From the IMG/VR virus record IMGVR_UViG_3300036790_000223: a stretch of DNA of 64,000 nt. One strand, written 5' to 3'. Numbering within the stretch: position 1 is the stretch's first letter; every line of letters starts with the position of its first letter. Shown piece after piece: positions 4,210 through 57,841 of this stretch. The translations under genes and the position numbers were made by a program. This DNA comes from a virus (lineage: Duplodnaviria; Heunggongvirae; Uroviricota; Caudoviricetes). Under the pieces are notes generated by a model that saw only the letters and a program-made list of their open reading frames with translations, had not been told where the DNA came from and ran no database searches.

Positions 4210-4416
4210 CTATTCGTAGATCTTGCCGGTGCCCTTGCATCGTGGGCACTGCCCGGCGTCCTTCCAGCCACGGCCCGCTGGTACCCGGACCTGGATCTTG
4301 CCCCGGCCACCGCAGTTCGGGCATTTGGTCTTCCGCTGCACCTTCACCTTTATCTTCATGCGTGCCCCGCCAAGGTACTGACCCCTGTTCCATCGGGTAA
4401 AGGCCGACTGCATCAC
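4210..4416 (-). CDS. DnaJ-type CxxCxGxG zinc-finger minigene (paralog 1)
   Basis: CPNCGGRGK ... CPRCKGTGK; start may be ATG 4359 or 4413. Confidence 0.5.
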   Translation of the reverse strand: MMQSAFTRWNRGQYLGGARMKIKVKVQRKTKCPNCGGRGKIQVRVPAGRGWKDAGQCPRCKGTGKIYE

Positions 4417-4436
4417 CTTAATGCTTGCGGGGCTCG

Positions 4437-4510
4437 TAGGGCGACTGCGACTTGAACGCAGGACCGGCGGATTATGAGTCCGCTGCTCTGACCAGCTGAG
4501 CTACCGCCCC
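4437..4510 (-). tRNA. tRNA-Met(CAT) copy 2
   Basis: GGGGCGGTAGCTCAGCTGGTCAGAGC..GCGGA-CTCATAA-TCCGC..CTGCGTTCAAGTCGCAG. Confidence 0.7.
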
Positions 4511-4516
4511 GCGTCG

Positions 4517-4588
4517 TACCGAGAACGGGGAACGACCCCATGACCTCTGCGTTATGGGCGCAGCGCTCTGCCACTGAGCTACCTCGGC
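4517..4588 (-). tRNA. tRNA(CAT) copy 3, atypical (C33, non-canonical T-loop)
   Basis: GCCGAGGTAGCTCAGTGGCAGAGCG, CTGCG-CCCATAA-CGCAG; T-loop GTCGTTC unusual; may be Ile-lysidine type or a pseudogene. Confidence 0.4.
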
Positions 4589-4592
4589 GTGG

Positions 4593-4667
4593 TGGGCATG
4601 GGAGGAATTGAACCTCCGACCTTCTCCGTATCAGGAAGCTGCTCGAACCGGACTGAGCTGCATGCCC
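4593..4667 (-). tRNA. tRNA-Ile(GAT)
   Basis: Acceptor GGGCATG/CATGCCC, anticodon loop CTGATAC, T-arm GGAGGTTCAATTCCTCC. Confidence 0.6.
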
Positions 4668-4726
4668 CTGTGGATGGGCGCGAGCTGGGCAAGGGAGTGC
4701 AATACAAGCCTCAGCTCGCACCCGTG

Positions 4727-4813
4727 CGGCACCGGTACGATTTGAACGCACGGGACGCTTTCACGCCCTATCGTTTTCGAGACGATTGCCTTAGGCCACT
4801 CGGCCACGGTGCC
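4727..4813 (-). tRNA. tRNA-Ser(CGA), type II
   Basis: GGCACCGTGGCCGAGTGGCCTAAGGC, loop CTCGAAA, long variable arm, T-arm GTGCGTTCAAATCGTAC. Confidence 0.75.
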
Positions 4814-5049
4814 TTGAACCTGTTGTGTGGGGGGAAAATCCCCGTACCCGCCCTCACCGTTCCACGATACCTGATCAGCGTGATGGTAGTGCGCGGTAAT
4901 GCTGCCCTGTTCCATGAGTGCATCGTGCTGGGCTGCCTTGTTAACTGCTGATGCGGCCCGGCGCATCTCCTGGTGGCAGGGGTGCAAACCCTGAAGGGTA
5001 GAATCTCACGCTCGCCTCAGAACCGTGTACCACGGTTACCGACTTCCCC

Positions 5050-5529
5050 CTACGGCTTCAGTTCGCCCATCTCGGTGGCCCAGTTGGCGGCCTGAATGGT
5101 GTCGTCCAGCTGCCGGTACTCCCGGGCCAGCCGGTCAGCTTCGGCTCGCAGGACCGGCACGTCCAGCAGGGTCTCGTCCTTCAGCTCGGATCGAGCCCGG
5201 CGCCCGTACAGGCTGCGCTGGCTGGGGGTGGCGCAGTCGGCCAGGTCACTGATGAACCCGCGTTCGGCGTTCAGCTGGTCCCTCTTGGCTAGCAGCTGGG
5301 TGATGGTGCGGCCATCACTGACCGTGGTGGCCGCGTTGGTCATGTTGATCTCGGCGGCACGGGCACTCAGCCTGACCATCAATGCCCGGACCTGGGTAGC
5401 CAGCTCGTTCGGGTCCTCAACCGGCTGTTCGCCTTCCTGGTGGATGGCGTTGGCCTTAGCCCTGGCCCGCAGCTGGGCTACCTCCTTCTTCATGTCGGAA
5501 AACTCGCTGAGCGCTGTCGCCAGCTTCAT
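5050..5529 (-). CDS. coiled-coil protein of unknown function
   Basis: 159-aa ORF with heptad-like charged repeats. Confidence 0.55.
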   Translation of the reverse strand: MKLATALSEFSDMKKEVAQLRARAKANAIHQEGEQPVEDPNELATQVRALMVRLSARAAEINMTNAATTVSDGRTITQLLAKRDQLNAERGFISDLADCATPSQRSLYGRRARSELKDETLLDVPVLRAEADRLAREYRQLDDTIQAANWATEMGELKP

Positions 5530-5551
5530 CCTCTCTCTCCTTTCGTTAACG

Positions 5552-5640
5552 CGGAGCCTGAGCGATTCGAACGCTCGACAGGGTTGCCCCTGAACCGCCT
5601 TAGCAGGGCGGCGCCATAAACCGGACTAGGCGAAGGCTCC
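5552..5640 (-). tRNA. tRNA-Ser(GCT), type II
   Basis: GGAGCCT acceptor, CCGCC-CTGCTAA-GGCGG, long variable arm, TCGAGCGTTCGAATCGCTC. Confidence 0.75.
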
Positions 5641-5831
5641 ATATTTTGAAGGTGAGGTCTGCTAGGGGTCAACATGCCCGCCTCCTCCGCAGGCTCCCGG
5701 GTGCGCGCTTTTGGGATCGTCCCATTGCCCAGGGCTCGGTACCTCACCGGGGGCTGGCAGGTGCTCCCCCCGGGGGGTGGCCCCTTACGCGGCCTTGCAC
5801 AGGACGTATCGCCCATACCTGCCAGCCTTTG

Positions 5832-5916
5832 TACGCCGGGGGGGACTCGAACCCCCACGTCCTCTCGGACACCTGGGTCTGAGCCAGGCGCGTCTGCCAA
5901 TTCCAGCCACCAGCGC
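5832..5916 (-). tRNA. tRNA-Leu(CAG), type II
   Basis: D-arm TGGCTGGAATTGGCAGACGCG like E. coli Leu, CCTGG-CTCAGAC-CCAGG, variable hairpin GTCCGAGAGGAC, GGGGGTTCGAGTCCCCC. Confidence 0.75.
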
Positions 5917-5999
5917 AAGCAGTTGGGTCACGATCACCGGAATCGGCCGGTACCTTGGCGGCTAGCCGCTGCACCTTGGTTCGCATCGTGACCCAGCCG

Positions 6000-6072
6000 A
6001 GCGGATGACCGGGTTCGAACCGGCGACCTTCACCTTGGCAAGGTGACGCGCTGCCAACTGCGCCACATCCGC
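6000..6072 (-). tRNA. tRNA-Gly(GCC)
   Basis: GCGGATG acceptor, TCACC-TTGCCAA-GGTGA, GCCGGTTCGAACCCGGT. Confidence 0.75.
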
Positions 6073-6129
6073 ATGTGCCACCGCTCTTGGCGACGCGCTG
6101 TGCGCCGTCCAGCAGGAGCGCGGTGGCCA

Positions 6130-6474
6130 CTATCCTGCTGTTTCACCATCGGCTACATGAGCCTCAGGATACCGGCATGAGCGGCAGAGGGTCTTGATCC
6201 AGCCGTGTGCCTTGGTGGCCTGGCATACCCCTGGCTTGCCGCATTGCTCGCATGTCTCACCTGACCTGGCCTCAAACCGGCCCAGGACCCTGGCGATCTC
6301 GATTGGGGCGTGCTCCAGGTAGACCCGCAAGCACCCGAACTTCTCCTTGACCTGGACGGTCTGGTAGGCCGGGTTGATCGCTGACAGTGCTGTGTGCATC
6401 TCGTCCAGCAGACCGTGCCATCCAGGGCCAACATCGTTTTTGTAGTCGGTGACCGGCCCGCCCTGATTGAACAA
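6130..6474 (-). CDS. hypothetical protein with C-terminal Cys4 cluster
   Basis: 114-aa ORF; CEQCGKPG..CRSC. Confidence 0.5.
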   Translation of the reverse strand: MFNQGGPVTDYKNDVGPGWHGLLDEMHTALSAINPAYQTVQVKEKFGCLRVYLEHAPIEIARVLGRFEARSGETCEQCGKPGVCQATKAHGWIKTLCRSCRYPEAHVADGETAG

Positions 6475-6548
6475 CTCGCATCATTCCCTTCCTCGGGGCG
6501 ACCCCCAGGCAGCGCCATGGCCGTATGGGTAAAACCTGGAGGTCACCG

Positions 6549-6621
6549 AGCCCCCTTACGGAATCGAACCGTAGACCTTCTCCTTACCATGGAGACACTC
6601 TGGCCGCTGAGCTAAGGGGGC
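6549..6621 (-). tRNA. tRNA-Thr(GGT)
   Basis: GCCCCCT acceptor, TCTCC-ATGGTAA-GGAGA, TACGGTTCGATTCCGTA. Confidence 0.75.
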
Positions 6622-6646
6622 GTGCGGCCGGTTGCCCGGCCGGTGG

Positions 6647-7003
6647 TCAGGCGGACTCGTCAGCCCGCAGCTTCTCTAGCACGATGCGCACGTCGGCGTA
6701 CCGGGTGTCGGGGTGGTCGTTGAAGGCCGCAATGCCCAGCGGCGTGATGGGGCCGTCCTTCCGCCACCGGCGTTCTGGCCACTGGCTGTTCGCGACCCGC
6801 TGGAACGCCCTGGCGAACCGGTTCCGGTCCCGCTGGGGAATCCCGGCGGCGTCCATGGCTCCTAGCACGCAGTGCCGCTCCATGCCCCGGCCACCGTGGT
6901 AGGTGCTCTTGACCCAGAACCGGCGGCTGGGGATAGCCTCCAGCACCCGGGCTGCCATCTCGCTGGTCTTCATCATGTGCGCTCTTCCGCCATCCTTTCC
7001 CAT
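6647..7003 (-). CDS. hypothetical protein
   Basis: 118-aa ORF. Confidence 0.45.
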   Translation of the reverse strand: MGKDGGRAHMMKTSEMAARVLEAIPSRRFWVKSTYHGGRGMERHCVLGAMDAAGIPQRDRNRFARAFQRVANSQWPERRWRKDGPITPLGIAAFNDHPDTRYADVRIVLEKLRADESA

Positions 7004-7221
7004 TCGGCCACCGTCATGAACCGACGGTGGCGCCCGTCCACCAGGACCATCACCCGCTGGTTAACCCGGGTGGCCTCGTGGGCAGCTGCAACCTGTTCCT
7101 TGGTGCGGACCGGCTTGCTCCTGCTTGCGCCAGAGTTCCCGCCTGCCCTCGCCGGGTTGGAGCCCTTCGGCTTGGGTGCCCGGTACTTCAGCTTCAGGTT
7201 CTGGCCTGTCATCTCCTGCAT
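6973..7221 (-). CDS. hypothetical small protein
   Basis: 82-aa ORF overlapping previous by 31 nt. Confidence 0.4.
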   Translation of the reverse strand: MQEMTGQNLKLKYRAPKPKGSNPARAGGNSGASRSKPVRTKEQVAAAHEATRVNQRVMVLVDGRHRRFMTVAEWERMAEERT

Positions 7222-7244
7222 TGCACTCCCCTGCTTTCCCTTCC

Positions 7245-7394
7245 TTATCCGTACCGGGCTACCCAGCGGTCCAGGAATGCCTGGCCATTGCAGCGCAGAA
7301 TGCGCCGCTTCTTGTTAATCCTACGGTGGTTTTGTGTCCAGTACCGCTGCTTAGACGGCTTGTCCTTGTACTGCTTGCCTTTGTGGGCTCCCAT
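7245..7394 (-). CDS. possible small basic protein (49 aa)
   Basis: MGAHKGKQYKDKPSKQRYW...; below ORF-track cutoff. Confidence 0.25.
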   Translation of the reverse strand: MGAHKGKQYKDKPSKQRYWTQNHRRINKKRRILRCNGQAFLDRWVARYG

Positions 7395-7411
7395 GGTGTG
7401 CTCCCTTTCCG

Positions 7412-7486
7412 AGCCCCCCGCCGGTCTCGAACCGGCAACCTTCGGCTTACAAAGCCACTGCTCTAGTCCACTTGAGCTAGGGAGGC
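7412..7486 (-). tRNA. tRNA-Thr(TGT)
   Basis: GCCTCCC/GGGGGGC acceptor, GTGGC-TTTGTAA-GCCGA, GCCGGTTCGAGACCGGC. Confidence 0.75.
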
Positions 7487-7647
7487 TAGCCTGCGCCGAA
7501 ACTGTGCGCGATGGAGATCAGGCCGCTGGCGACCTCGTTAAAGAGGTCGTAGGCGGTGTGCAAAGCCCAGGCGACAAAAGACGGGGCCTTGATGAGCAGC
7601 CAGATAACGATGGCCCACCCCAGCAGCTTCTTCAAGAACTGAATCAT
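7486..7647 (-). CDS. small transmembrane protein (53 aa)
   Basis: MIQFLKKLLGWAIVIWLLIKAPSFVAWAL..; the longer track ORF runs over tRNAs, so the internal start is used. Confidence 0.4.
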   Translation of the reverse strand: MIQFLKKLLGWAIVIWLLIKAPSFVAWALHTAYDLFNEVASGLISIAHSFGAG

Positions 7648-7667
7648 TCCTTCTCCCTTCCCTAACG

Positions 7668-7742
7668 AGCCTGTGGGCCGGGTTGAACGGCCTGCCTCCG
7701 CTGTACGAGAGCGGCGCTCTGCCTTCCGTGAGCTACACAGGC
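7668..7742 (-). tRNA. tRNA-Thr(CGT)
   Basis: GCCTGTG/CACAGGC, CCGCT-CTCGTAC-AGCGG, GGCCGTTCAACCCGGCC. Confidence 0.75.
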
Positions 7743-7808
7743 ATTGTAGGTGGGCAGGGGGGAGGCGTCGCCCTGGGCTTGCAGCTAAGGGCACCCCCCT
7801 GCCACCCG

Positions 7809-7880
7809 CTCCCCGGCAAGGATTCGAACCTCAAATAACTGGTCCAGGGCCAGTCGTGTTGCCAGTTACACCACCAGGGA
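7809..7880 (-). tRNA. tRNA-Gln(CTG) (C at position 33)
   Basis: TCCCTGG acceptor, ACTGG-CCCTGGA-CCAGT, GAGGTTCGAATCCTTG. Confidence 0.5.
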
Positions 7881-7881
7881 G

Positions 7882-7954
7882 TGCGCCGCCAGGGCCTCGA
7901 ACCCTATATCCCCCGGTTAAGAGCCGGGTGCTTCACCTGTTTAGCTTGCGGCGC
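7882..7954 (-). tRNA. tRNA-Lys(CTT)
   Basis: GCGCCGC/GCGGCGC, CCCGG-CTCTTAA-CCGGG, TAGGGTTCGAGGCCCTG. Confidence 0.7.
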
Positions 7955-7978
7955 TAGCCCGGCCGGAGCCGGGGTTGG

Positions 7979-8074
7979 TCACTTGTCCTTCTTGTCGGTG
8001 CCGGGCTTCTCGTGCGCCCCACCTGCTCCGCCCTTGCCGGTGTTACGGCTGAGCGGCTTCTCGTGCTTTCCCAT
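7979..8074 (-). CDS. possible tiny protein (31 aa)
   Basis: MGKHEKPLSRNTGKGGAGGAHEKPGTDKKDK with GGAGAGGAGGGAACC RBS-like upstream. Confidence 0.25.
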   Translation of the reverse strand: MGKHEKPLSRNTGKGGAGGAHEKPGTDKKDK

Positions 8075-8095
8075 CTGGTTCCCTCCTCTCCTGCG

Positions 8096-8167
8096 AGCCG
8101 CGCCGGGGAGTCGAACCCCGCTTGCCTGCTTGGAAGGCAGGTGCACTAGCCGATGTGCTAGCGCGGC
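8096..8167 (-). tRNA. tRNA-Gly(TCC)
   Basis: GCCGCGC/GCGCGGC, CCTGC-CTTCCAA-GCAGG, CGGGGTTCGACTCCCCG. Confidence 0.75.
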
Positions 8168-8171
8168 ATGC

Positions 8172-8300
8172 TCACTTTCCCACCCAGCCCTTCGGCTTTG
8201 GGTGCTCGCCCTTCCCTTTGCAGTTGGGGCACTTCAGGTCGGGGCGGCCTATGCTGCCGGGGACCGTTCCCTTGCCGCCGCAGGTCTGGCACTTGATCAT
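8172..8300 (-). CDS. DnaJ-type CxxCxGxG zinc-finger minigene (paralog 2)
   Basis: MIKCQTCGGKGTVPGSIGRPDLKCPNCKGKGE..; 42 aa. Confidence 0.5.
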   Translation of the reverse strand: MIKCQTCGGKGTVPGSIGRPDLKCPNCKGKGEHPKPKGWVGK

Positions 8301-8321
8301 GTTGCCACCTTCCCCCGAAAG

Positions 8322-8393
8322 AGACCGTAACCAGGATCGAACTGGTGTGCTCCGCTTTGCAGGCGGACCCCTAAGCCACTCGGGCATACGGTC
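8322..8393 (-). tRNA. tRNA-Cys(GCA)
   Basis: GACCGTA/TACGGTC, TCCGC-CTGCAAA-GCGGA, ACCAGTTCGATCCTGGT. Confidence 0.7.
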
Positions 8394-8411
8394 TAGTGCA
8401 TAACTATGCAG

Positions 8412-8485
8412 TGCTCGCGTCCGGAGCCGAACCGGAGTCCTCCCGGGTTTCAACCGAGCGCTCATTCCAACTGAGCTACACGAGC
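8412..8485 (-). tRNA. tRNA-Phe(GAA)
   Basis: GCTCGTG/CGCGAGC, CTCGG-TTGAAAC-CCGGG, TCCGGTTCGGCTCCGGA. Confidence 0.75.
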
Positions 8486-8687
8486 AAGTTCATGGGGGGC
8501 TGGCCCGCAGCCCGCTTCGACGACCCTGTCGCCTCCGCAGATCCACTACTCGTCTGGCCTGTCGCATTGCCCCGTAAAGGGGGGATGCTGCGGCGCTCAC
8601 TTTCGCAGGTACGCCAGCCCTCCGTTGGCCGTAACTTGATCGTCCCCACGGACCCGGGGGCCTCTGCGGCTAGCGATAGCCAGCCAG

Positions 8688-8761
8688 TCGGGATGACAGG
8701 ATTTGAACCTGCGACCTTCGCGTCCCGAACGCGACGCGCTACCAAGCTGCGCCACATCCCG
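8688..8761 (-). tRNA. tRNA-Pro(CGG)
   Basis: CGGGATG/CATCCCG, TCGCG-TTCGGGA-CGCGA, GCAGGTTCAAATCCTGT. Confidence 0.75.
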
Positions 8762-8868
8762 ATTTGGGGCAGCTAAATCACCCACGTTGACGGATGGGTG
8801 GATGATCCTTCCCCCCGGCTCTGCCGTCTGTTTCTGTCCGGGAGCGCGCCTGCTGCCAAGGCGACTCG

Positions 8869-8942
8869 TCAGCGTGCCCAGATTTGAACTGGGGACTTCC
8901 TGCTCCCAAAGCAGGCGCGCTACCAAGCTGCGCCACACGCTG
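8869..8942 (-). tRNA. tRNA-Pro(TGG)
   Basis: CAGCGTG/CACGCTG, CCTGC-TTTGGGA-GCAGG, CCCAGTTCAAATCTGGG. Confidence 0.75.
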
Positions 8943-9116
8943 TTACCTCAGCCCCGCCCGCTCCGGCCCCCATGAACAAGTGGTACGGGCGAGGCTGGGT
9001 TTGCTGACCCACCACCAGGCTGACTAGCTCCGGTGCGGCTGTCTTACCACCGGAACCAGGCGGCCCTCAGTGGTGGTCAGCAGTAAAACGCCGGGCGTGC
9101 TTGCCACTTAACACCA

Positions 9117-9164
9117 CCGCCCCTTTCGGGGCGGACCGGAATCGAACCGGCGCTTCCCAGCTCG
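9117..9164 (-). pseudogene. tRNA 3'-half fragment (T-arm + acceptor-like hairpin) abutting tRNA-Ala
   Basis: CCGGTTCGATTCCGG T-arm followed by perfect hairpin CCGCCCC-TTTC-GGGGCGG; no room for a 5' half before 9165. Confidence 0.35.
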
Positions 9165-9237
9165 TGGACCGTCGCGGGCTCGAACCGCGCACCCCCTGCT
9201 TGCAAAGCAGGTGCTCTACCAGATGAGCTAACAGCCC
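9165..9237 (-). tRNA. tRNA-Ala(TGC) with G3:U70
   Basis: GGGCTGT/ACGGTCC, CCTGC-TTTGCAA-GCAGG, CGCGGTTCGAGCCCGCG. Confidence 0.75.
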
Positions 9238-9325
9238 TGGAGTGGGGGCGTTCCTGACAGCTTGCTTCCGTCAGGCGAGTGGGACTGCCCTCAGGGGCAT
9301 TTCTCCCCTTCTCCGACTCCCCACG

Positions 9326-9400
9326 TGGTCTGCCCTGGACTTGAACCAGAGAATCTTCCCCTCACGGGGCTGCTCTATGCCGTTGAGCTACTGACCGAGC
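9326..9400 (-). pseudogene. degenerate tRNA-like element
   Basis: Canonical D-arm (GCTCAACGGCATAGAGC) and T-arm (TCTGGTTCAAGTCCAGG) but anticodon arm replaced by CCCC-GTGA-GGGG tetraloop hairpin; acceptor does not pair. Confidence 0.35.
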
Positions 9401-9649
9401 GCCAGGTATCGGCAAGGGGGGCCACCCCTATCCCGCACCTGGCTACCCTCCTGCCCGTCAAGACGGGGGCTATCCCGCTACCCGGTGTGACCCGGGGCGG
9501 CCCGTCAAGGAGCAGGATGCTGGTGGACGGTCCCATTGACCCTCAGCCAGGCTGAGGCGGGTTCTTCCCCGCAGTTTCGCCCGTCGACCGTTCACCTAGG
9601 ATGTCTCCGGTCCCCGCTGCGGGTTTCCAGCCTTTCGGCTTCCGTCCCG

Positions 9650-9722
9650 TGGAGCTAGCGCGACTTGAACGCGCGGCCTCCGCCATGCCATGGCGGCGCT
9701 CTGCCAGCTGAGCTACAGCCCC
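9650..9722 (-). tRNA. tRNA-Ala(GGC) with G3:U70
   Basis: GGGGCTG TA GCTCAGCTGGCAGAGC, CCGCC-ATGGCAT-GGCGG, GCGCGTTCAAGTCGCGC, TAGCTCC 3' acceptor as in E. coli Ala. Confidence 0.75.
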
Positions 9723-9974
9723 TCGCGGTGCCGGTCGGGCCGTTGCAATTCGGTGACCGGTCACCTGCACACTTCTTCCCCCATGGGTTCATCGCCGCCG
9801 TGCGCTATGGCTGCTACCTGCTCTAACCCTCACAGGGGGGCCTTATCTCGCCGGGGGAGGCGGGCTGCTGGCCCTCCCTAGGAGGGCACTGGTGCCCGCC
9901 CGACCCCGGCGAACTTTGGTCTTCAGTTCCAGTTGTCTAGTTGCTAGCACGTCCACCCGCAGGTTGGTGCCGAG

Positions 9975-10046
9975 CACGGGGGCTAGGAGTCGAACCTAGT
10001 TCTCACCGGTTTTGGAGACCGATCGCCTAGCCGTTGGCTCCCCCGC
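9975..10046 (-). tRNA. tRNA-Trp(CCA)
   Basis: TCGGT-CTCCAAA-ACCGG, CTAGGTTCGACTCCTAG; overlaps the last ~17 codons of the HNH ORF. Confidence 0.65.
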
Positions 10047-10430: not shown

Positions 10431-10464
10431 CTGCCTGCTAGTAGCTTACCGGATGTGACGCCAT

Positions 10465-12642: not shown

Positions 12643-12648
12643 GATCTC

Positions 12649-14050: not shown

Positions 14051-14662
14051 CTATAGCCATTCGACCACGTCGGTAGCGTCAGCGATGCCGTCATCCTTCT
14101 CAGCGGCCAGCTGCAGCAGACGCTGAGCTGGTGCGGACAGACGGTCCACCACTGCCGTGCCCGGCGTGGAGTGCGGGTCTTGCAGCTGGCTCATCACCTG
14201 ACGAGCATCAGCGCAAGCGTAGATGGTAAAGCGGTCTTCCTCCAGGTCTACCAGCTGCTCGGCCAGGTCACGCAGCGCTGGTGGGCGGCAGCGGTCACAG
14301 GGCTTAGCAGTCTCAGGCAGGTCGTCCGGGTGCTCGGGCAGCCCGGTGTTGCAACGGCTGTTATGCAGGTGGTACACCAGCGAGCGCCCGGTCAGGTGCA
14401 GCACGTACCCCTTAGGCCGCAATGGCTCCAGAGGGTCGGCTGCTCCGCCGTTCGCATCGCGGCGCACTTCCCAGTCCCGGTACAGTGCCATCTCAATCCA
14501 GCGACGACGGCGCCGTTCGGTGTCGGTGTTGACTTCTGCCAGCTTTTCCCCGTAGAAGGCTCGCTGGCCCAGCCCCGCCTGCAGCCGGATCTCGCGGACG
14601 TGGCTACTCACCACTAGCTCCCTTCCCTTTCCTTTTCCCTTACCCCCCCGGCACCCTAGCAC
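14051..14662 (-). CDS. hypothetical protein
   Basis: 203-aa ORF; start uncertain. Confidence 0.45.
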   Translation of the reverse strand: MLGCRGGKGKGKGRELVVSSHVREIRLQAGLGQRAFYGEKLAEVNTDTERRRRRWIEMALYRDWEVRRDANGGAADPLEPLRPKGYVLHLTGRSLVYHLHNSRCNTGLPEHPDDLPETAKPCDRCRPPALRDLAEQLVDLEEDRFTIYACADARQVMSQLQDPHSTPGTAVVDRLSAPAQRLLQLAAEKDDGIADATDVVEWL

Positions 14663-14722
14663 CTACCTTACCGCCCTGCGGCCTGCCAGCCAGCCGGGCG
14701 AGCAGCGGGTATTATTGCTGCT

Positions 14723-15259
14723 ATGAACGTAAAGGGTGGAACCGGGGCAGTTATTTCCCGTGACGATGTAGAGAAGGCCCTGTGGCAGGTGACCGGCTGG
14801 CAAGGCGACCAGGCCGCCATCGACGGGGTCATGGTGGTCATTGAAGCCTGGAACGCCAGTGCCACCGAGGCTCTGACGCGCTCCAGTGACAGCTTCCGCA
14901 ACGGCTATTACCACGCCCTGGTCACCATGGCCAGTGCCATTCTGGAAACCGGCGGCAAGATGCGCCTGGTGCCACCGGGGGCTGAGCCAGTGCTGCGCGC
15001 TGGTGACGTGGACGAGCTGGCAGAAGCCATCGTAGCCCGGCTGCGGCCTAATACCGCTGCAGTTGAGGCAGCGGAGCGCATCCGTGAGTTCTACGGCGGG
15101 CCAGCTCCACTGCCCGATGGGGTGGTCCCGGCAGAGAAGACCTGCACCGGGTGCGGGCGCTCTAAGCCGCTGGAAACCGGGTTCTATAAGGACGCCAAGG
15201 GTAAGTTTGGCCGTAAGGCCCGGTGCAAAGAGTGCGAAAAGGGCCGGGAGGCTGCATAA
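14723..15259 (+). CDS. hypothetical protein with C-terminal Zn ribbon
   Basis: CTGCGRSKP...CKECEKG at C-terminus. Confidence 0.5.
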   Translation: MNVKGGTGAVISRDDVEKALWQVTGWQGDQAAIDGVMVVIEAWNASATEALTRSSDSFRNGYYHALVTMASAILETGGKMRLVPPGAEPVLRAGDVDELAEAIVARLRPNTAAVEAAERIREFYGGPAPLPDGVVPAEKTCTGCGRSKPLETGFYKDAKGKFGRKARCKECEKGREAA

Positions 15260-15293
15260 CCTCCTGGCCAAGGCAGGAAAGGGAGCGACGGGA

Positions 15294-48040: not shown

Positions 48041-48052
48041 GAGGAACCACCC

Positions 48053-50464: not shown

Positions 50465-50465
50465 C

Positions 50466-50825
50466 TCAGGTACCCAGAACCCGGCAGTTCGGGTGACCGC
50501 AGCGCTTGAGGCAGCTGCAGATCCTGAACTGGCCGCCACCTGAGCAGCGGGGGCAGTCCTGACGGGGCACCCGGGGGGTCTCCTCACGCCGGTTCCGGTG
50601 CACCATCAGGTCCTCCTCCACAGCGACGGTCACCTTCACGTGGCGGCCATCCCCGGTGGTCATGCGGAACACCGACTCGCCTGGTTCCACGGTGGGGGCT
50701 ACTCCGCCTTCCACCATGAACTCAGCCGCATCAAAGCCGTCCCTTTCGTAGGCCCACCCGTCCAGCGCGAGCACCATGCGCTCGGCTATCTCCCGGGCGT
50801 CGTCGTCCGTGTCGTGCATGTTCAT
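50466..50825 (-). CDS. hypothetical protein with C-terminal Cys cluster
   Basis: MNMHDTDDDAREIAER...CPRCSGGGQFRICSCLKRCGHPNC. Confidence 0.45.
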   Translation of the reverse strand: MNMHDTDDDAREIAERMVLALDGWAYERDGFDAAEFMVEGGVAPTVEPGESVFRMTTGDGRHVKVTVAVEEDLMVHRNRREETPRVPRQDCPRCSGGGQFRICSCLKRCGHPNCRVLGT

Positions 50826-51372: not shown

Positions 51373-51385
51373 GCTTTTCCCTTCC

Positions 51386-51754: not shown

Positions 51755-51792
51755 CTTCCTGTTCCTTTCCTAGTCCTTACCCTTGCACTATC

Positions 51793-51823
51793 GTAAACGG
51801 GTTTACCCTGTGCTTTATTTCCC
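51793..51823. repeat. 31-bp direct repeat copy B
   Basis: Identical to 50434-50464; in the divergent region between the 51754 (-) and 51838 (+) gene starts. Confidence 0.8.
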
Positions 51824-51837
51824 TGGGGGGAATCAAG

Positions 51838-52512
51838 TTGGAAACCGAGATGGTCGGTCTTGACCAGCTGACGTTGCACCCGGAGAACCCACGTCGCTCC
51901 AGTGTGTTTGAGCTGGAGAGCGGGATCACCCGGTGGGGTCAGTACCGGCCGGTGGTGGTGCAGCGCTCCACCGGCTACATCGCAGTCGGCAACCACATGG
52001 TCCAGGCCATGCGCAACCTGGGCTGGGCTAAGGCTGCCGTGCACTGGATGGACCTGAGCGACGACGACACCCGGCGGCTGCTGCTGTGGGACAACAAGAG
52101 CACCGACAGCTCTGCCTACGACGAGGAAGCCCTGGCGGAGCTGCTGGCTTCCATCGACGACCTCGAAGGCACCGGCTACACCCCTGACGACGTGGACGAC
52201 TTCCTCGCTGCTGGTGGTGGGCTGCCGATCCTGGACCCAGAGGACACCGGAGCGGCCTACGGGGAGAGCGCCGAGCAGACCCAGGCCCGGCGGGATTACT
52301 TTGCTGATGCTGCGCCCCGGGGCAGCGGTGGCGTGCGGGAGGCCATTCTGGTCCTGTCCCAGGAGGGCTTTGATGAGTACCAGCGTGGCATCAACGCGCT
52401 GCGCGCTGGCCGGGAGATGACCGGTGGTGAGGTGGGACTGCTGGCGGTGCAGGTGGCCCTGCGGGCACAGGCCCGCTGCAACGGCAGTGATGGGTGCGCC
52501 TGGTGCGGGTAG
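51838..52512 (+). CDS. ParB-like nuclease-domain protein (third in window), first gene of modification cluster
   Basis: LTLHPENPRR...STGYIAVGNHMVQAMRNLGW (ParB/Srx-like GxxR box); TTG start. Confidence 0.6.
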   Translation: METEMVGLDQLTLHPENPRRSSVFELESGITRWGQYRPVVVQRSTGYIAVGNHMVQAMRNLGWAKAAVHWMDLSDDDTRRLLLWDNKSTDSSAYDEEALAELLASIDDLEGTGYTPDDVDDFLAAGGGLPILDPEDTGAAYGESAEQTQARRDYFADAAPRGSGGVREAILVLSQEGFDEYQRGINALRAGREMTGGEVGLLAVQVALRAQARCNGSDGCAWCG

Positions 52513-52523
52513 GCTTACCTGGC

Positions 52524-52661
52524 ATGGCGGAAAAGGTAAAGGAAACGTGCACCCGGTGCGAGGGGATGGGCATTCTCCAGAAGCCCGGTAGCAAGAAGAT
52601 TGTCCCGTGCCCTAAGTGCAGTGGCATGGGTTACCGGTGGGTTCCCCGTCGTGGGTTGTGA
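52524..52661 (+). CDS. DnaJ-type CxxCxGxG zinc-finger minigene (paralog 3)
   Basis: MAEKVKETCTRCEGMGILQKPGSKKIVPCPKCSGMGYRWV; below ORF-track cutoff. Confidence 0.45.
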   Translation: MAEKVKETCTRCEGMGILQKPGSKKIVPCPKCSGMGYRWVPRRGL

Positions 52662-53721
52662 CTGGCGTCTGCCGGATAACCGGCGTGAGGCATTCCAGCG
52701 GGCATACTCATTCATGCTCCGGTACAGAAATGCGCCTGGCTGTGTCTACTTCGCCTTGCCTTACCTGGCGCACGAGCTGGACTGGGACACCGAGGAGCGG
52801 TACTGGGCAGCCTGGCTGAACGCCAACACCCAGAACCCAGTCACCACGATGCTGCTGATGGAGGCCGGAAGCGTTCCCGGCTACCACGAGCGCGTGGCCC
52901 GCTACCAGGAGCGCAACTGGAAAACCCTGCAGTGGGACTCCGACAGAAAGTGGCAGAAGAGCAGCGAGGTGTTTGGCCGGGCACTGCGCGGATACGCCGA
53001 ACTCATGGAGCAGGCAGGCAGCCAGAGCGCCTACTGGGCCGGTGTGGCTGACTGGGACGATGCCTGGCGCAGGATGACCGCCTTGCCCTACATGGGACGG
53101 CTGAGTGCCTGGAGCGGGCTGGAGTACATGCGGCTGCTCGGTGATCAGCCCATCCCCGACGCGGAGACCTTGCTGCTGGGTGACGCATCCGGGTCCCGCA
53201 GCCACCGTAACGGGCTGGCCCTGGTGACGGGGCACGACGACCTGCTGCAGGACCGGCAGCTGAACCCCGGTGGCTACACCACCAAGTGGGAGCCAGACTT
53301 CCTCACCGAGATGGAGACCGAGGGTTACTGGCTGCTAGCGCAGGCCCGGGAGCGCAATCCTGGCGAGCCAGACGTCGGGTACCTGACCCTGGAGTCGTGC
53401 TTGTGCAACTGGAAGAGCTGGCACAAGCGCAACCGCCGCTACCCGAACGTGTACGCCGACATGCTGCATGAGCGCATCCGCTGGGCTGAGGCACGGCATG
53501 GACTGCGGTTCGGTGTGCTGTGGGACGCCCGCAAGGCCGCCTTGCCGGATTACCTGCGGCTGGAAGACACCACCGGTGACCCGGGGCTGTGTGGCGTGAA
53601 GCAGAACCACTACAACGAGACCGGCGAGGTCATCTTGCTGGGGCACGAACCGGAATGGAAAGACATGTGGTCGGCGTTCGATACCGGCGTTGCCGACCGG
53701 AGATACGGGGTGTGCAGGTGA
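52651..53721 (+). CDS. large conserved-looking protein of unknown function; candidate base-modifying transferase (aGPT-pyrophosphorylase-like role is inference)
   Basis: ~357 aa, Trp/Tyr-rich, no P-loop or common cofactor motif recognised; sits between ParB-like gene and PLP enzyme; start may be TTG 52600 or ATG 52714. Confidence 0.5.
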   Translation: MGCDWRLPDNRREAFQRAYSFMLRYRNAPGCVYFALPYLAHELDWDTEERYWAAWLNANTQNPVTTMLLMEAGSVPGYHERVARYQERNWKTLQWDSDRKWQKSSEVFGRALRGYAELMEQAGSQSAYWAGVADWDDAWRRMTALPYMGRLSAWSGLEYMRLLGDQPIPDAETLLLGDASGSRSHRNGLALVTGHDDLLQDRQLNPGGYTTKWEPDFLTEMETEGYWLLAQARERNPGEPDVGYLTLESCLCNWKSWHKRNRRYPNVYADMLHERIRWAEARHGLRFGVLWDARKAALPDYLRLEDTTGDPGLCGVKQNHYNETGEVILLGHEPEWKDMWSAFDTGVADRRYGVCR

Positions 53722-53822
53722 AGCTGAGGGATGCGGAGTTCCGCCAGAGCCTGGCGATGGGTGCGGTCGTGGTGGCTGCGCTGGCCTTGCTGATTGTGTT
53801 GCTGGCTAAGGGGATCAAGTGA
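53712..53822 (+). CDS. possible 36-aa transmembrane peptide
   Basis: VQVKLRDAEFRQSLAMGAVVVAALALLIVLLAKGIK; GTGA-coupled to next gene. Confidence 0.25.
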   Translation: MQVKLRDAEFRQSLAMGAVVVAALALLIVLLAKGIK

Positions 53823-54280
53823 CTGACGAACGCTTCTACGCTGACCCGGTGGCTAACCGGCTAGCCCTGCACAAACGGTTCAACCCGGCAGAGCTGCGTG
53901 GCGGACATGGGCAGTGGATTGCTGGTTTGGGGTCCCTGGGTGACAAGCTGAACGACGCCGGGTACAACATGGCAGCCGGTGCCGTGGGCAGGGCAGCGCA
54001 GCATGCCAGCGCCGGGGACATGGAAGCAGCGCACCGGTCGCTGGATCACGCCCGTGATGCCGTGCGCGGCAAGCACCAGGAGATGGCCCGCAGTGCCCCC
54101 AGGGCTGGTGAGGTGCGCCCGGATGCTTACGCCCGTGATGATGCGCTGCGCTCCATCGAACAAGCACGCAGCAGCCAGCCTGACCCGGCCACCAGCCGCA
54201 CCACCTTCGGCAGTAACTTCCGTTACGGTGCCGCGATCTCACCCCAGAGCGATGTGGAGCCGAGGCGCAACACCGGATGA
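53819..54280 (+). CDS. hypothetical protein (Ala/Arg-rich, 153 aa)
   Basis: Overlap-coupled within cluster. Confidence 0.5.
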   Translation: MTDERFYADPVANRLALHKRFNPAELRGGHGQWIAGLGSLGDKLNDAGYNMAAGAVGRAAQHASAGDMEAAHRSLDHARDAVRGKHQEMARSAPRAGEVRPDAYARDDALRSIEQARSSQPDPATSRTTFGSNFRYGAAISPQSDVEPRRNTG

Positions 54281-55125
54281 GCCTGACCCCGGTTGAGCGC
54301 CACGATGGCCTCTGGCTCAAGCTGGAGGAGCGTCACCGGCTGCCCAGCGGGGTCAACGGCTCCAAGCTGCGTGCCTGTCAGTACCTGATCGGGGCAGCGA
54401 AGGCCGCCGGTAAGACCCGGGTGATCTCAGCTGCGTCGGTGCTGAGCCCGCAGAACGCCATGGCCGCGAACGTAGCAGCGGACCTGGGCATGGAGTGCAC
54501 CGTCATCCTCGGTGGCACTAAGCCATCCACTGCCGGGCGCCACCGCGCGGTGCAGATCGCCAGCGACTACGGTGCTGACTTCCGGTATATCCCGGTTGGC
54601 TACAACCCGGCCCTCCAGCGCGCCGCCCGCGCCGAAGCCACCGATCCGGCCGCTTACCACCTGCAGTACGGCATCACCACCCCGCCCGATGCCAGCGCAG
54701 TGGAGTTGCGCGCGTTCCATAACGTAGGCGCAGACCAGGTGGCCAACCTGCCTGCTGAGGTGAAGACCCTGGTGATCCCGTTCGGATCCGGCAACACTGC
54801 CGCTGGAGTACTCCTGGGGCTCAGCCAGCAGCCCCCTGAGGCCCTGGAGCGGGTCATCCTCATGGGTATCGGGCCAGACCGTCAAGAATGGCTCTGGAGC
54901 CGTCTGGCCGTCCTGGACGCTAAGGTTCCGGTGCCGGTGACCCACATCGCCTTGCACCCGGACTTTGCCACCTACGGGGACAAGATGAAGGCGTCCATCG
55001 GCCCCATCACGATGCACCCGACCTACGAGGGCAAGATCGTCCGGTGGGCAGATGAGAACCGTCCCCCCTGGTGGACCAGGAGGGACGGTTCAACGGCGAT
55101 GTGGATCGTTGGCGGGCCGATCTAG
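54277..55125 (+). CDS. PLP-dependent enzyme of the ACC-deaminase/D-cysteine-desulfhydrase (Trp-synthase-beta fold) family
   Basis: NGSKLRA matches the PLP-lysine N-K-x-R-K box; Gly-rich FGSGNTAAG loop; 282 aa. Confidence 0.65.
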   Translation: MSLTPVERHDGLWLKLEERHRLPSGVNGSKLRACQYLIGAAKAAGKTRVISAASVLSPQNAMAANVAADLGMECTVILGGTKPSTAGRHRAVQIASDYGADFRYIPVGYNPALQRAARAEATDPAAYHLQYGITTPPDASAVELRAFHNVGADQVANLPAEVKTLVIPFGSGNTAAGVLLGLSQQPPEALERVILMGIGPDRQEWLWSRLAVLDAKVPVPVTHIALHPDFATYGDKMKASIGPITMHPTYEGKIVRWADENRPPWWTRRDGSTAMWIVGGPI

Positions 55126-55643
55126 GCGGCGACCTCCCACCGCAGCTGGTAAGCGGAGGTGACCAGCAGGTGCGCCTCAGCAGCGGCGCCGCACTCAATG
55201 CGGCATTCGCCGCACTCAATGCGGCATTCGCCGCAGTCGATGACCGCATGTAGCCATGCAATTAGGCCACTGCCGGGCCAGAACCATTCCTGGCCAATGC
55301 GGTAGGGCGCGAACATCTTCTGCAGGCGCCGCTCCTGCAACTCCTCGCCGGGGACAGAGAGGATCATCTTCACCCTCAGCTCACCCCCACGCCGCCGCGT
55401 GTTGGCCGAGGTGCCGATCTTCAGATGTGCGCCCCCATCCCAGGCCACGTAAACTCGTTGACCGCTGGCTGCAGTGCGGGTGCGAACGATGGGCGCGACG
55501 CGGGGGACTAGCCTCCGCGCTTCTGTTGTAGTACCATTGTGCACAGAAGTAGTCACCGTTTCTGGTCCTCTTTCCGTTACGGTTTTTACAGATGAAGCTT
55601 GGGCAGCCACCCAAGCTTCATCGCTTTTCCCTGAGAATACCAC
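55122..55643 (-). CDS. T5orf172/GIY-YIG-like domain protein (homing-endonuclease-like), antisense insertion in cluster
   Basis: VYVAWDGGAHLKIGTSANTRRRGGEL ... RIGQEWF core; C-terminal ECGECRI repeats. Confidence 0.65.
   Translation of the reverse strand: MVFSGKSDEAWVAAQASSVKTVTERGPETVTTSVHNGTTTEARRLVPRVAPIVRTRTAASGQRVYVAWDGGAHLKIGTSANTRRRGGELRVKMILSVPGEELQERRLQKMFAPYRIGQEWFWPGSGLIAWLHAVIDCGECRIECGECRIECGAAAEAHLLVTSAYQLRWEVAA
55189..55242. repeat. 21-bp tandem repeat x2.6 (CCGCACTCAATGCGGCATTCG)
   Basis: Two perfect copies plus diverged partial; in-frame within T5orf172 gene. Confidence 0.8.
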
Positions 55644-55864
55644 CAGACGCGCCCACGATCAAGCCTGCGTGCGATGGGTACCGCCCACCCCCGTCAGGCC
55701 CTCGCGGGCCGTCACGGGCCAGCTCAGCGCCAGGTGTAGCACGCTGTAGCTTGCCCAAGCGCTAAGCAAACGGCAGCGTGGCGCAGGTTGGCGCAAATTG
55801 ATGCAGGCTGAGCTGTCGGCGCCGATGGAAAGGGCGTTAAGCCCGGCGTTTAGGCTAGGCGGTC

Positions 55865-56452
55865 ATGGACCTCATCTACATCACCGGAGCCCCGGCCACT
55901 GGCAAGTCAACCCTGATGGCGCAGATTACTAAGGGATGCGAGCGCCAGCCCCGCAGCGGTCCGCCTGCTCACGATGTACTGACCACCCACGGCGGGATCG
56001 TTGGCGCTGAGCTAGGGGTCCGACGTGAGCGTTACAGCGGGACCGACGCCCTGCCACTGAACATCCAGCCTCGCGCGCTCACCTGGCTAGCTCAGATGCC
56101 CTACCGCGTCGTGCTGGGTGAAGGCCAGCGCCTGGGCAACTACGGCTTTCTGTCCGAAGCCATGAACACTGGCTACCGCGTCACCTTGATCCACCTGGTT
56201 GCTGATGAGGTCACGCTCGATGCCCGCCGGGCGGAGCGGGGCAGTGCTCAAGATCCCCGCTGGATGAAAGGCGCGAGCACCCAAGCAGCCAACCTGGCCC
56301 GCCAGTGCAGCGGGGACGGCCGGATCACGGTGGTGGAGCTGGACGCGGCACTGCCGCTGGAGACACTGCTGGAGCAGCTGAACGTCTACCTGCCTGTGCT
56401 GGCGAAACTGGGGGATCATGAAACTTACGGCAGCAGCTCCGGTGCGGCATAA
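55865..56452 (+). CDS. small P-loop kinase (candidate DNA 5-hmU/nucleotide kinase)
   Basis: ITGAPATGKSTL Walker A; 195 aa, size of nucleoside/nucleotide kinases. Confidence 0.65.
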   Translation: MDLIYITGAPATGKSTLMAQITKGCERQPRSGPPAHDVLTTHGGIVGAELGVRRERYSGTDALPLNIQPRALTWLAQMPYRVVLGEGQRLGNYGFLSEAMNTGYRVTLIHLVADEVTLDARRAERGSAQDPRWMKGASTQAANLARQCSGDGRITVVELDAALPLETLLEQLNVYLPVLAKLGDHETYGSSSGAA

Positions 56453-56609
56453 GTGCTGGATTTGCGATGGCACCGGCAGCCGTCAAGCCTATGTCGAAGG
56501 CAACAACAAGTTCCGGATCATCCAGTGTGCGGCCTGCGTCGGGAAGGGGTGGCGCGTCTACCATGACTGGTGCGATGTGGGAATACCGCATCCGGGCAGC
56601 ACGAGCTGA
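56418..56609 (+). CDS. DnaJ-type CxxCxGxG zinc-finger minigene (paralog 4)
   Basis: CWICDGTGS ... CAACVGKGW. Confidence 0.45.
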   Translation: MKLTAAAPVRHKCWICDGTGSRQAYVEGNNKFRIIQCAACVGKGWRVYHDWCDVGIPHPGSTS

Positions 56610-57690
56610 AGCTCAGTTCCGCAACCCGGCCTGCAAGGATGAAGATCACGTAGCGTGCGGCTGCATGTGGGGCAAGAACGTCCCGCAGACCTTCCGTGGT
56701 ATCACCATCGGCCCGCAGGCCGTCAAGCTGCTGAAGCCCAGCGGCAAGCCGCTGGCGATCTACCTGCCTGGCTACATGGCACGGCACACCAGTGACGAAG
56801 CCACCTACGCCATCCTCGACGCGATGGGGCGTACCGGTAAGACCGGCAACCGGGGAGCAGCCGGAGCCACCCCGCAGCTACCCCGAGGCAAGCAGCTGCG
56901 CAGCTACGCGGTACCTATCCACTCCAACATCATGGGTGCGTTCGAGCCGAGCGGGCTGTACAAGACCTGCCGCCTGACCGTCTACACCGCAGCCCACATG
57001 GAAGACTGGAAGGCCCTGGAGCCTGCCCTGCAGGACGTCGCAGCCGCCCTGCAGGAGCACGTGCCGGATCGTTACGCTAAGCAGGCCGAGCAGGCTGCCC
57101 GTACGCTACCGGAGTGGGTGATCCCCGGTACCCCGTTCACCACCGTGACGGTGAACCACTCCTACCCCACCGGAGTCCACACCGACAAAGGTGACCTTGA
57201 TGCTGGGTTCAGCGCTATCTTCGCCGCCCGGCGTGGTCACTACACCGGAGGCGAGCTGTGCTTCCCGCAATACGGGGTGGCGGTAGACCTGCAAGACGGT
57301 GACCTGATCCTGATGGACGCCCACGACTACCACGGCAACACCGCCATGACCTGCGCGTGTGGTAACGACATCCGCAAGCCGTGCAAAGTCTGCGGAGCTG
57401 GCCGGGTCTCGGTGGTCACGTACTTCCGCACTAAGATGCCTGAATGTGGCAGTGCCGAGGCTGAAGTAGCTAAGGCCGCTGCCCGGGCAGAGCGCCGGAT
57501 GCTCACCGATGCACAGCTGCTCGCAGAGCTGAACGGAGCCCCGCTCACGGTGAACGCTATTCAGCGCACCCTGAAGCTAGGTGACCTGCGTGCCGCGCGG
57601 GTGCTGCAGCTGGCAGCGGAGACCGGCCGTGAGGTAGCACCTGAAGAACTAGCCAAGGCCCACGCCATCTGGGCTAAGAACGCGGGGTAG
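56563..57690 (+). CDS. 2OG-Fe(II) dioxygenase (candidate TET/JBP-like thymine hydroxylase) with Zn-ribbon and C-terminal winged-helix-like tail
   Basis: HTD (HxD) ... DAHDYHGN distal His ... RVSVVTYFR; CACGN..CKVCG; start could be a few codons later. Confidence 0.6.
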   Translation: MTGAMWEYRIRAARAEAQFRNPACKDEDHVACGCMWGKNVPQTFRGITIGPQAVKLLKPSGKPLAIYLPGYMARHTSDEATYAILDAMGRTGKTGNRGAAGATPQLPRGKQLRSYAVPIHSNIMGAFEPSGLYKTCRLTVYTAAHMEDWKALEPALQDVAAALQEHVPDRYAKQAEQAARTLPEWVIPGTPFTTVTVNHSYPTGVHTDKGDLDAGFSAIFAARRGHYTGGELCFPQYGVAVDLQDGDLILMDAHDYHGNTAMTCACGNDIRKPCKVCGAGRVSVVTYFRTKMPECGSAEAEVAKAAARAERRMLTDAQLLAELNGAPLTVNAIQRTLKLGDLRAARVLQLAAETGREVAPEELAKAHAIWAKNAG

Positions 57691-57694
57691 AGAA

Positions 57695-57841
57695 ATGGCC
57701 CGGACCTCCTACACCAAGCCCCGCACCTGCCCAGCGTGCAAAGGTGCAGGCCGCTACATCAGCTACAAAGACGTCCGTGGTGTCCCGAAGCGGGAGACTA
57801 AGGCGTGCAAACGCTGCAAAGGCACCGGCAAGGTAAGCTAG
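57695..57841 (+). CDS. DnaJ-type CxxCxGxG zinc-finger minigene (paralog 5)
   Basis: CPACKGAGR ... CKRCKGTGK. Confidence 0.45.
   Translation: MARTSYTKPRTCPACKGAGRYISYKDVRGVPKRETKACKRCKGTGKVS

Follow-up and report, generated by a model that had tools for sequence, protein, structure and literature searches.

Why would a phage of modest size carry copy after copy of a tiny zinc-knuckle gene, some of them between its tRNA genes and others inside the operon for DNA hypermodification? The question is raised by IMG/VR record IMGVR_UViG_3300036790_000223 (Caudoviricetes), from an uncultured, soil-type phage of ~117 kb and 65% GC, and specifically by the 64,000-nt stretch of it that we analysed, here termed the window. 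A preliminary description had noted five minigenes in the window, each with two CxxCxGxG motifs of the type found in the DnaJ Cys-rich domain. We find that these are real genes and that they belong to a larger family of very basic mini-proteins, which seems to hold in common only a predicted zinc scaffold and its basic composition.

Five mini-genes with paired knuckles

The five mini-genes of the window are labelled w1-w5, the members in the left flank Lft1-3, and one member of the array to the right of the window R3. The window members, with lengths in amino acids (aa), are:

4210-4359 (minus strand): w1, 49 aa, MKIKVKVQRKTKCPNCGGRGK...CPRCKGTGKIYE, net charge +12
8172-8300 (minus strand): w2, 42 aa, occupying the whole spacer between tRNA-Cys and tRNA-Gly
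52524-52661 (plus strand): w3, 45 aa, between a ParB-like gene and the gene for an amino-acid:DNA transferase (ADDT)
56418-56609 (plus strand): w4, 63 aa, between the kinase and TET genes
57695-57841 (plus strand): w5, 48 aa, net charge +12, after the TET/JBP gene

All five open reading frames (ORFs) translate as first described, each with exactly two CxxCxGxG motifs. A six-frame scan found 11 such motifs in the window, 10 of which form the five pairs. The sole unpaired motif (50532-50555, minus strand) reads CPRCSGGG and is part of a called 119-aa gene (50466-50825, minus strand), in the Cys-rich tail at its C-terminus; the family hidden Markov model (HMM) does not recognise it. That model, built from 15 paralogs, picks w1-w5 in the window (w1 with E 2.9e-17) and no other ORF. 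The GC content at third codon positions of w1-w5 (0.70-0.86) falls inside the range of the phage's long genes. Clear Shine-Dalgarno sequences precede w2, w4 and most flank members; that of w2, GGAAGGTGG, is strong and begins ~7 nt past the tRNA-Cys 3' end, and that of w4 (GGGGGA) stands 3 nt upstream. The w2 stop codon comes 4 nt ahead of tRNA-Gly.

Could these be chance or non-expressed ORFs, generated by GC-rich sequence? Such an origin would fit the absence of three of the five from public gene calls and the overlap of w4 with both of its neighbours. However, 200 dinucleotide-preserving shuffles of the window gave a mean of 1.6 motifs, a maximum of 5 and not a single pair, 1.2 Mb of DNA from other, mostly high-GC phages contained 0-1 comparable ORFs, and none of the eight Cys/Gly scaffold positions is lost in 14 of 15 paralogs, with ribosome-binding sites present. 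We regard a chance origin as extremely improbable and effectively refuted.

The sizes were initially put at 42-68 aa. The lower figure stands; the upper one, for w1, probably does not. It requires a start at GTG 4416, which is possible but less likely than ATG 4359, the start we consider most likely because the JGI gene call uses it and because it yields a basic N-terminal tail like those of the other paralogs. The exact 49-aa w1 product is present in JGI, and the exact w2 product in both JGI and Logan; JGI names both 'DnaJ-class molecular chaperone', and the JGI record that holds them is a 116,795-bp contig. A K23N variant of w2 was found in a contig 99.76% identical. The other three, w3, w4 and w5, are missing from the JGI and Logan gene calls. 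The proposed cause, a length cut-off, does not account for this, since products of 42 and 49 aa were called and one of 63 aa was missed.

Fifteen or more members in one genome

The family had been described as one of five. Contigs that are 99.7-100% identical to the window and extend from it on both sides bring the census span to ~98 kb, and within this span there are at least 15 members, ten of them just beyond the window. The positions of these ten, and of the tRNA array that hosts w1 and w2, are:

L081 ~14274-14458, 14547-14729 and 15171-15347: Lft1-3, two-knuckle ORFs between tRNA genes in the left flank
L085 11919-12056, 12053-12196, 12511-12678 and 12773-12955 (minus strand): first four of the seven right-array members
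L085 13317-13490, 13491-13667 and 13671-13835 (minus strand): remainder of the right array
403-10046 (minus strand): tRNA array of 26 tRNA genes, all on a single strand

The right array is compact: its seven translationally coupled members fill ~2.1 kb of the minus strand (window-equivalent ~65.1-67.0 kb), and most have good ribosome-binding sites. It is embedded in a block whose genes match no known family, and its transcription runs away from the portal operon. The first knuckle of R3 is degenerate.

The tRNA array extends to the left of the window (L081 14004-15580) by six more tRNAs, giving 32 detected in total. Two members had been placed between tRNAs, correctly: w1 is flanked by tRNA-Glu (3982-4057) and tRNA-Met (4436-4510), and w2 by tRNA-Gly (8095-8167) and tRNA-Cys (8321-8393). 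Across the family, 5 of the 15 paralogs lie between tRNA genes, and 12 of the 15 lie outside the modification cluster. We found no further members in the next 14 kb to the left of Lft1-3.

The array is very large for a phage, and small, mostly basic ORFs occupy its spacers. One of these, directly downstream of w1 and adjoining tRNA-Glu, is a 45-aa zinc-ribbon ORF outside the family (4062-4199, minus strand; MAEWGTCWKC...CASC, with a Lys/Arg-rich tail), which has a good ribosome-binding site (GGAAAAAGGAA), zero Pfam matches and no entry in the public collection. To the left of the window, a 24-aa ORF (L081 14473-14547) ends in a (Pro-Lys) repeat, MPDPILIPTTARPKPKPKPKPKPK, and has a strong ribosome-binding site, and a very basic 58-aa ORF (L081 15057-15233; MSKSHKDQRKHRRK...) overlaps the start of Lft3 in another frame.

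How did the copies come to be so widely distributed? At the DNA level the 15 genes have only short matches in common, within the knuckle codons, and we detected no common flanking repeats among them. A recently spreading mobile element is therefore ruled out. Neighbouring members are no closer to each other in sequence than distant ones.

The phage itself has few near neighbours. No close DNA relative of the window was found among 50,697 deposited phages, and the large terminase (59479-61023), which sits after the modification cluster, has ≤42% identity to that of any cultured phage. TET homologues in IMG/VR and the JGI metagenomes, sought as a route to closer relatives, have identities of ≤60%.

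A conserved scaffold and an extreme charge

Alignment of the peptides, proposed earlier as a check, recovers a common Cys/Gly scaffold. Across all 15 members the layout is a Lys/Arg-rich N-terminal tail, [K/R]xCxxCxGxG, 12-25 variable residues, a second [K/R]xCxxCxGxG and a short C-terminal tail. R3 is the only member that departs from the eight scaffold positions. Members are 41-63 aa long, except for one of 60-79 aa depending on the start chosen, and in 14 of 15 just 3-10 residues follow knuckle 2. Outside the Cys/Gly columns the mean pairwise identity is 14%, with a maximum of 32%.

The second common trait is charge. All 15 members have an isoelectric point of 9.0-11.3 and a net charge of +4 to +14. 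Compared with 16 long genes from this phage, the family is rich in Lys (15.0% of residues versus 2.5%) and poor in Asp and Glu (together 4.2% versus 10.2%). The mean core charge is +7.2, and no member falls below +4.

Is this basicity simply a property of the fold? We scanned IMG/VR with a degenerate DNA pattern (CPxCxGxG, 12-22 aa, CxxCxGxG), which returned at least 120 loci (1.05 Mb). A small two-motif ORF (≤110 aa) is present in ~40% of the matches listed, and thus the protein type is a common one; in the other listed matches the two-knuckle unit lies inside larger proteins, several of them of ~600-730 aa. For 42 stand-alone two-knuckle mini-ORFs in contigs of other viruses, the core charge averages -2.1, and a value of +5 is attained by only 5%. 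Basic cores here, against neutral to acidic ones elsewhere, therefore mark basicity as a trait of the family and not of the fold. Multiplicity differs in the same comparison. With the family HMM, 72 of the listed loci give one match, 6 give two, and none gives three or more.

Stand-alone phage mini-ORFs with two knuckles (PHROGs 3931, 6060, 8897, 8027 and 9961) equal the present proteins in size and motif. They occur as one or two per locus and are neutral to acidic, whereas the genome studied here encodes at least 15 such proteins, every one strongly basic, and packs the genes for seven into 2.1 kb. The members are thus new, unusually basic and unusually numerous examples of a kind of phage mini-protein that is already known; what sets the family apart is its expansion and its basic character.

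A predicted single-zinc-centre hairpin

The initial assignment to a DnaJ-type CxxCxGxG family with one zinc centre is borne out by profile comparisons. Pfam DnaJ_CXXCXGXG (PF00684) matches all of w1-w5 with E 1e-7 to 3e-3 and 18.1-32.3 bits, against a cut-off of 32.7; the best are w5 (E 1.2e-7, 32.3 bits) and w1 (E 2.4e-7, 31.3 bits). Pfam Anti-TRAP (PF15777) also matches all five, with E 1e-5 to 6e-3 (5e-5 for w2) and 16.9-25.5 bits against a cut-off of 32, in alignments that reach only profile positions ~9-44 of 59. Scores are far lower relative to the cut-offs for bacterial DnaJ (TIGR02349, ≤25.5 bits versus 377) and RtpA (NF058604, 18.5-22.9 bits versus 65). When the PDB was searched with a profile, it gave matches to the Cys-rich domain of DnaJ (1EXK, E 4e-6) and to Anti-TRAP (3LCZ, E 7e-4). 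Both w1 and w5 align to positions ~157-199 of TIGR02349, which we take to be DnaJ repeats 2-3 (the zinc centre II hairpin). An AlphaFold2 model has three beta-strands around the knuckles and no helix, at a predicted local distance difference test score (pLDDT) of 66.

Judged from sequence, the layout thus has its counterpart in a single Zn(Cys)4 centre within the Cys-rich domain of DnaJ, and the predicted scaffold resembles both the zinc centre II hairpin and the Anti-TRAP zinc ribbon. The DnaJ domain (1EXK, PF00684) is the best sequence match of the family and has like knuckles; the start-to-start spacing here, 20-33 residues, resembles that of repeats 2-3. DnaJ has four repeats and two zinc centres, however, whereas the phage proteins have two repeats and one predicted centre, are much more basic, and lack the J domain, the Gly/Phe-rich region and the C-terminal substrate-binding domains. 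A regular-expression search for the J-domain signature, in six frames across the window, L085 and L208 (~85 kb distinct), returned nothing credible. We accordingly rejected identification as a DnaJ or Hsp40 type I co-chaperone, given that w1-w5, at 42-63 aa, amount to the knuckle unit alone, with no J domain or HPD motif, and given the two repeats in place of four and the scores under the PF00684 and TIGR02349 cut-offs.

Could the mini-proteins still act in a chaperone pathway, by mimicking DnaJ zinc centre II to engage or hijack host DnaK, or as a holdase or thiol-disulfide oxidoreductase, in the manner of plastid proteins with nothing but the DnaJ zinc finger (BSD2, the ZnJ family)? The DnaJ match and the JGI name point that way, although the name is an automatic label. 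There is also a chloroplast precedent, in that proteins with the DnaJ-like zinc finger alone are described as chloroplast chaperones (PMC5818400). But one zinc centre of two is present, every score is below its cut-off, no J-domain protein was found in the ~85 kb screened, and 15 copies with extreme positive charge are unlike the known chaperones of the DnaJ-zinc-finger type. We consider a chaperone-related role improbable.

Anti-TRAP (RtpA/YczA of Bacillus subtilis; PF15777, NF058604; 2BX9, 3LCZ) is closer in architecture, a stand-alone protein of ~50 aa with two knuckles round one zinc, and provides a precedent for the minimal two-knuckle scaffold acting alone as a binder and regulator. The size and motifs that define it (~53 aa, two CxxCxGxG knuckles) recur in w1-w5, with zinc binding predicted. 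Anti-TRAP, however, carries a helix at each end, the C-terminal one forming trimers and dodecamers (PMC11255114), where the phage proteins have a longer loop and only short tails after knuckle 2. It is encoded in a T-box-regulated Bacillus operon, whereas here the genes are in a phage genome with no TRAP context visible. Given the missing C-terminal oligomerisation helix and the scores under the PF15777 and NF058604 cut-offs, we rejected the members as RtpA orthologues. They are best described, on present comparisons, as putative single-zinc-centre zinc hairpins of DnaJ type, or Anti-TRAP-like, that are neither DnaJ co-chaperones nor RtpA orthologues.

The more general possibility is that the family consists of Anti-TRAP-like mini-inhibitors, in which each paralog blocks or redirects a different host protein (in defence, transcription or translation) and the expansion reflects an arms race. 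The scaffold equals that of Anti-TRAP in its two motifs and ~50-aa length, with the Pfam and 3LCZ matches given above. Hypervariable loops and tails on an invariant scaffold suit such a role, as does a tandem array among small genes without known relatives, typical of early or accessory regions, and a basic surface could target acidic proteins. Yet the trimerisation helix is missing both from the sequences, which mostly end 3-10 residues past knuckle 2, and from the model, RtpA scores stay at or below 22.9 bits against 65, and extreme positive charge in all 15 members is unexpected for diverse protein targets. We judge this somewhat unlikely, and treat it as the main rival to the reading developed below.

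Two other assignments were tried and rejected. Lambdoid Q antiterminators (PHROG 6060/127 'Q-like'; 4MO1, 7UBM) match weakly, in the zinc-finger segment alone (PDB E 0.1-0.3; PHROG E 1e-5 to 1e-3), and were set aside because the members are too short to hold the RNA polymerase-binding body of that 147-207-aa protein. Ribosomal zinc-ribbon proteins were set aside too, with no ribosomal family among the Pfam matches up to E 10.

Relatives in other genomes and in other proteins

Searches for homologues returned little at the level of single mini-genes. Translated searches (tblastn) with two members against the 50,697 phage records gave nothing significant, within the limits set by the low-complexity filter and the short queries. 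A word-indexed protein search with the five-member alignment returned the phage's own proteins and two multi-repeat proteins only, and a search for related loci with w1 alone returned the same phage and one weak match. An exhaustive profile search of a representative library gave 1977 matches at E ≤1e-3, with the top matches mostly long proteins carrying 4-11 tandem copies of the two-knuckle unit and functionally uninformative. These include P0006, P0010, P0013 and others from public metagenomes, 150-1000 aa in length. The two-knuckle unit thus also exists as long repeat arrays inside single polypeptides. One match of 43 aa (P0080) comes from contigs of only ~1 kb.

The unit is also found inside a nucleic-acid-handling protein of phages. 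The DNA polymerase of HMO-2011-type marine phages carries part of a DnaJ domain, including two CXXCXGXG motifs, as an insert (PMC9038755). There the unit is internal to a protein of ~680 aa, whereas here it is free-standing.

In terms of motif, the mini-proteins fall within the CPxCG class of small zinc-finger proteins, which includes Brz of Halobacterium salinarum and is defined by two Cys/His patterns, 7-40 residues apart in under 100 aa, at least one of them CPxCG, CxxCG or CPxCx (PMC2253796). Individual genomes have many unrelated members of this class, often unannotated, with proposed roles in DNA or RNA binding and in regulation of adjacent genes (PMC2253796), so that the haloarchaeal proteins offer a helpful precedent for numerous unrelated mini zinc fingers with regulatory roles in one genome. 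The patterns in w1-w5 fit the definition, with 16-22 residues between them; as CPxCG is a motif class, membership says nothing of homology or function. Brz has Cys/His patterns without the GxG extension and is cellular, and its class is not a homologous family, unlike the phage one.

Are the mini-genes partners of the modification enzymes?

Three members lie within the DNA-hypermodification cluster, the genes of which are:

51838-57690 (plus strand): hypermodification cluster, hosting w3, w4 and w5
51838-52512 (plus strand): ParB-like gene
52651-53721 (plus strand): ADDT (PF18724)
54277-55125 (plus strand): pyridoxal phosphate (PLP)-dependent enzyme
55865-56452 (plus strand): P-loop nucleotide kinase 3 (PF18751)
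56563 or 56575 to 57690 (plus strand): TET/JBP dioxygenase (PF12851)

The packing is tight enough for the translational coupling to enzymes that was first suggested for w3-w5. w3 begins 12 nt past the ParB-like stop (52512), and its own stop overlaps the ADDT start, GTG 52651, by 11 nt (GTGGGTTGTGA). We place the ADDT start at this codon because the alignments of ~30 ADDT homologues begin at residues 16-21 of the frame opening at 52600; the public starts (52714 or 52756) appear to be mis-called, truncating the predicted protein. With its ATG inside the kinase gene, w4 shares 35 nt with the 3' end of that gene; its C-terminal tail, which is not conserved, shares 35-47 nt with the start of TET (for 56575 or 56563; the alignments of distant TET homologues begin at residue 1-3 when 56575 is taken as the start). 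The zinc core of w4, at 56454-56549, fills the kinase/TET intergenic gap. w5 begins 5 nt past the TET stop (57690). No terminator-like site was seen between w3-w5 and the enzymes, and no sigma-70-like promoter site in a scan of 51.0-59.5 kb.

It had been proposed that the mini-proteins may be zinc-ribbon chaperones or DNA-binding adaptors for the modification enzymes, here ADDT, the kinase and TET/JBP. The embedding of w3-w5 in the cluster, overlapping or abutting the enzyme genes with no terminator-like site between, is compatible with this, and enzymes could in principle be tethered to DNA through a basic module that binds it. If the mini-genes were conserved accessory genes of the enzymes, however, they should accompany them in other genomes. 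We examined 160 loci with TET homologues (~1.2 Mb, mostly high-GC), 80 from IMG/VR (~750 kb) and 80 from metagenomes (461 kb). The IMG/VR loci, at 35-56% TET identity, contain zero paired motifs and zero credible family-HMM matches, and the metagenome loci a single paired-knuckle ORF, 2.2 kb off and on the opposite strand, which makes 1 in 160. In the closest relative of the cluster (L209; ADDT 62%, TET 56% identity), ParB is followed directly by ADDT, and counterparts of w3, w4 and w5 are all lacking.

The search of related genomes thus went against the proposal, as do the 12 of 15 paralogs encoded elsewhere and the mutual identity of w3-w5 outside the motifs (6-17%), which is no closer than to the rest of the family. 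Dedicated chaperones or adaptors for these enzymes now appear improbable, and the idea is disfavoured as a general partnership. As the association with TET is not conserved, w3-w5 were inserted into the cluster in this lineage, whose genome has the family throughout.

Some other features of the region may be recorded here. Homologous hypermodification clusters are found mainly in high-GC viral and metagenome contigs. The interval between the PLP enzyme and the kinase (55126-55864), which includes a hairpin with a 13-bp stem (55591-55622), is a strain-variable cassette: two contigs that are otherwise 99.7% identical (L082 and L084) have it swapped for unrelated sequence with a different minus-strand ORF. 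Upstream of the cluster, 42434-47068 (plus strand) is an ORF of ~1500 aa with a Spherulin4 (PF12138) match, in a region where GC skew is strongly negative and the GC content higher (0.67-0.69).

What might the mini-proteins do?

The reading that we tentatively favour is that zinc stabilises these mini-proteins and that they bind polyanions, most likely as factors for regulation or host takeover that have nucleic acid as their target. Zinc would clamp the two knuckles into a rigid mini-hairpin, and the variable hairpin together with the Lys/Arg tails would form a polyanion-binding surface. The likeliest targets would be nucleic acids, whether DNA of phage or host or RNA, tRNA precursors among it, or else acidic surfaces on proteins that handle nucleic acids. 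The members may thus act in regulation or host takeover, and their expression would come from several transcription units, namely the tRNA array, the modification operons and the block of genes without known relatives. Their placement fits this reading, with five in the tRNA array, where w2 makes up a whole spacer, and seven among unmatched genes.

Several points weigh against it. Fifteen divergent paralogs exceed the apparent need of a non-specific nucleic-acid binder, and hypervariable loops would suit the diversification of protein targets equally well. Anti-TRAP, the best characterised protein on this exact scaffold, binds protein and not nucleic acid. The confidence of the AlphaFold2 model is low, and Foldseek found nothing in the PDB with E <5 for it. 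Finally, we found no relatives at intermediate divergence, the sole close variants being 99.7-100% identical.

A functional analogy for the favoured mechanism is offered by the zinc knuckles of retroviral and retrotransposon nucleocapsid proteins, which are small and very basic, and bind and chaperone nucleic acids. These are CCHC knuckles (CX2CX4HX4C) with a different fold, and the nucleocapsid match in the PDB profile search was not significant (2IHX, E 0.97). By extension, the family could supply the virus with its own nucleic-acid chaperones or coating proteins, which organise or protect hypermodified DNA, or which bind the precursors and products of the tRNA array, a role that we consider unlikely. 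If true, tRNA processing would free the inter-tRNA spacers as RNAs from which several members are translated, and the set would be a bacterial-virus counterpart of the retroviral nucleocapsid proteins, built on the DnaJ-type knuckle.

At a practical level, standard gene calling overlooked three of the five window members and appears to have misplaced the start of the adjacent transferase. More broadly, this is a rare instance of a modest-sized phage with so extensive a family of paralogous genes. The genome stands out for its at least 15 divergent copies, all of them extremely basic, with five in tRNA spacers and three in the hypermodification operon, and the phage is a good system in which to ask what role stand-alone DnaJ-type zinc-knuckle mini-proteins have.

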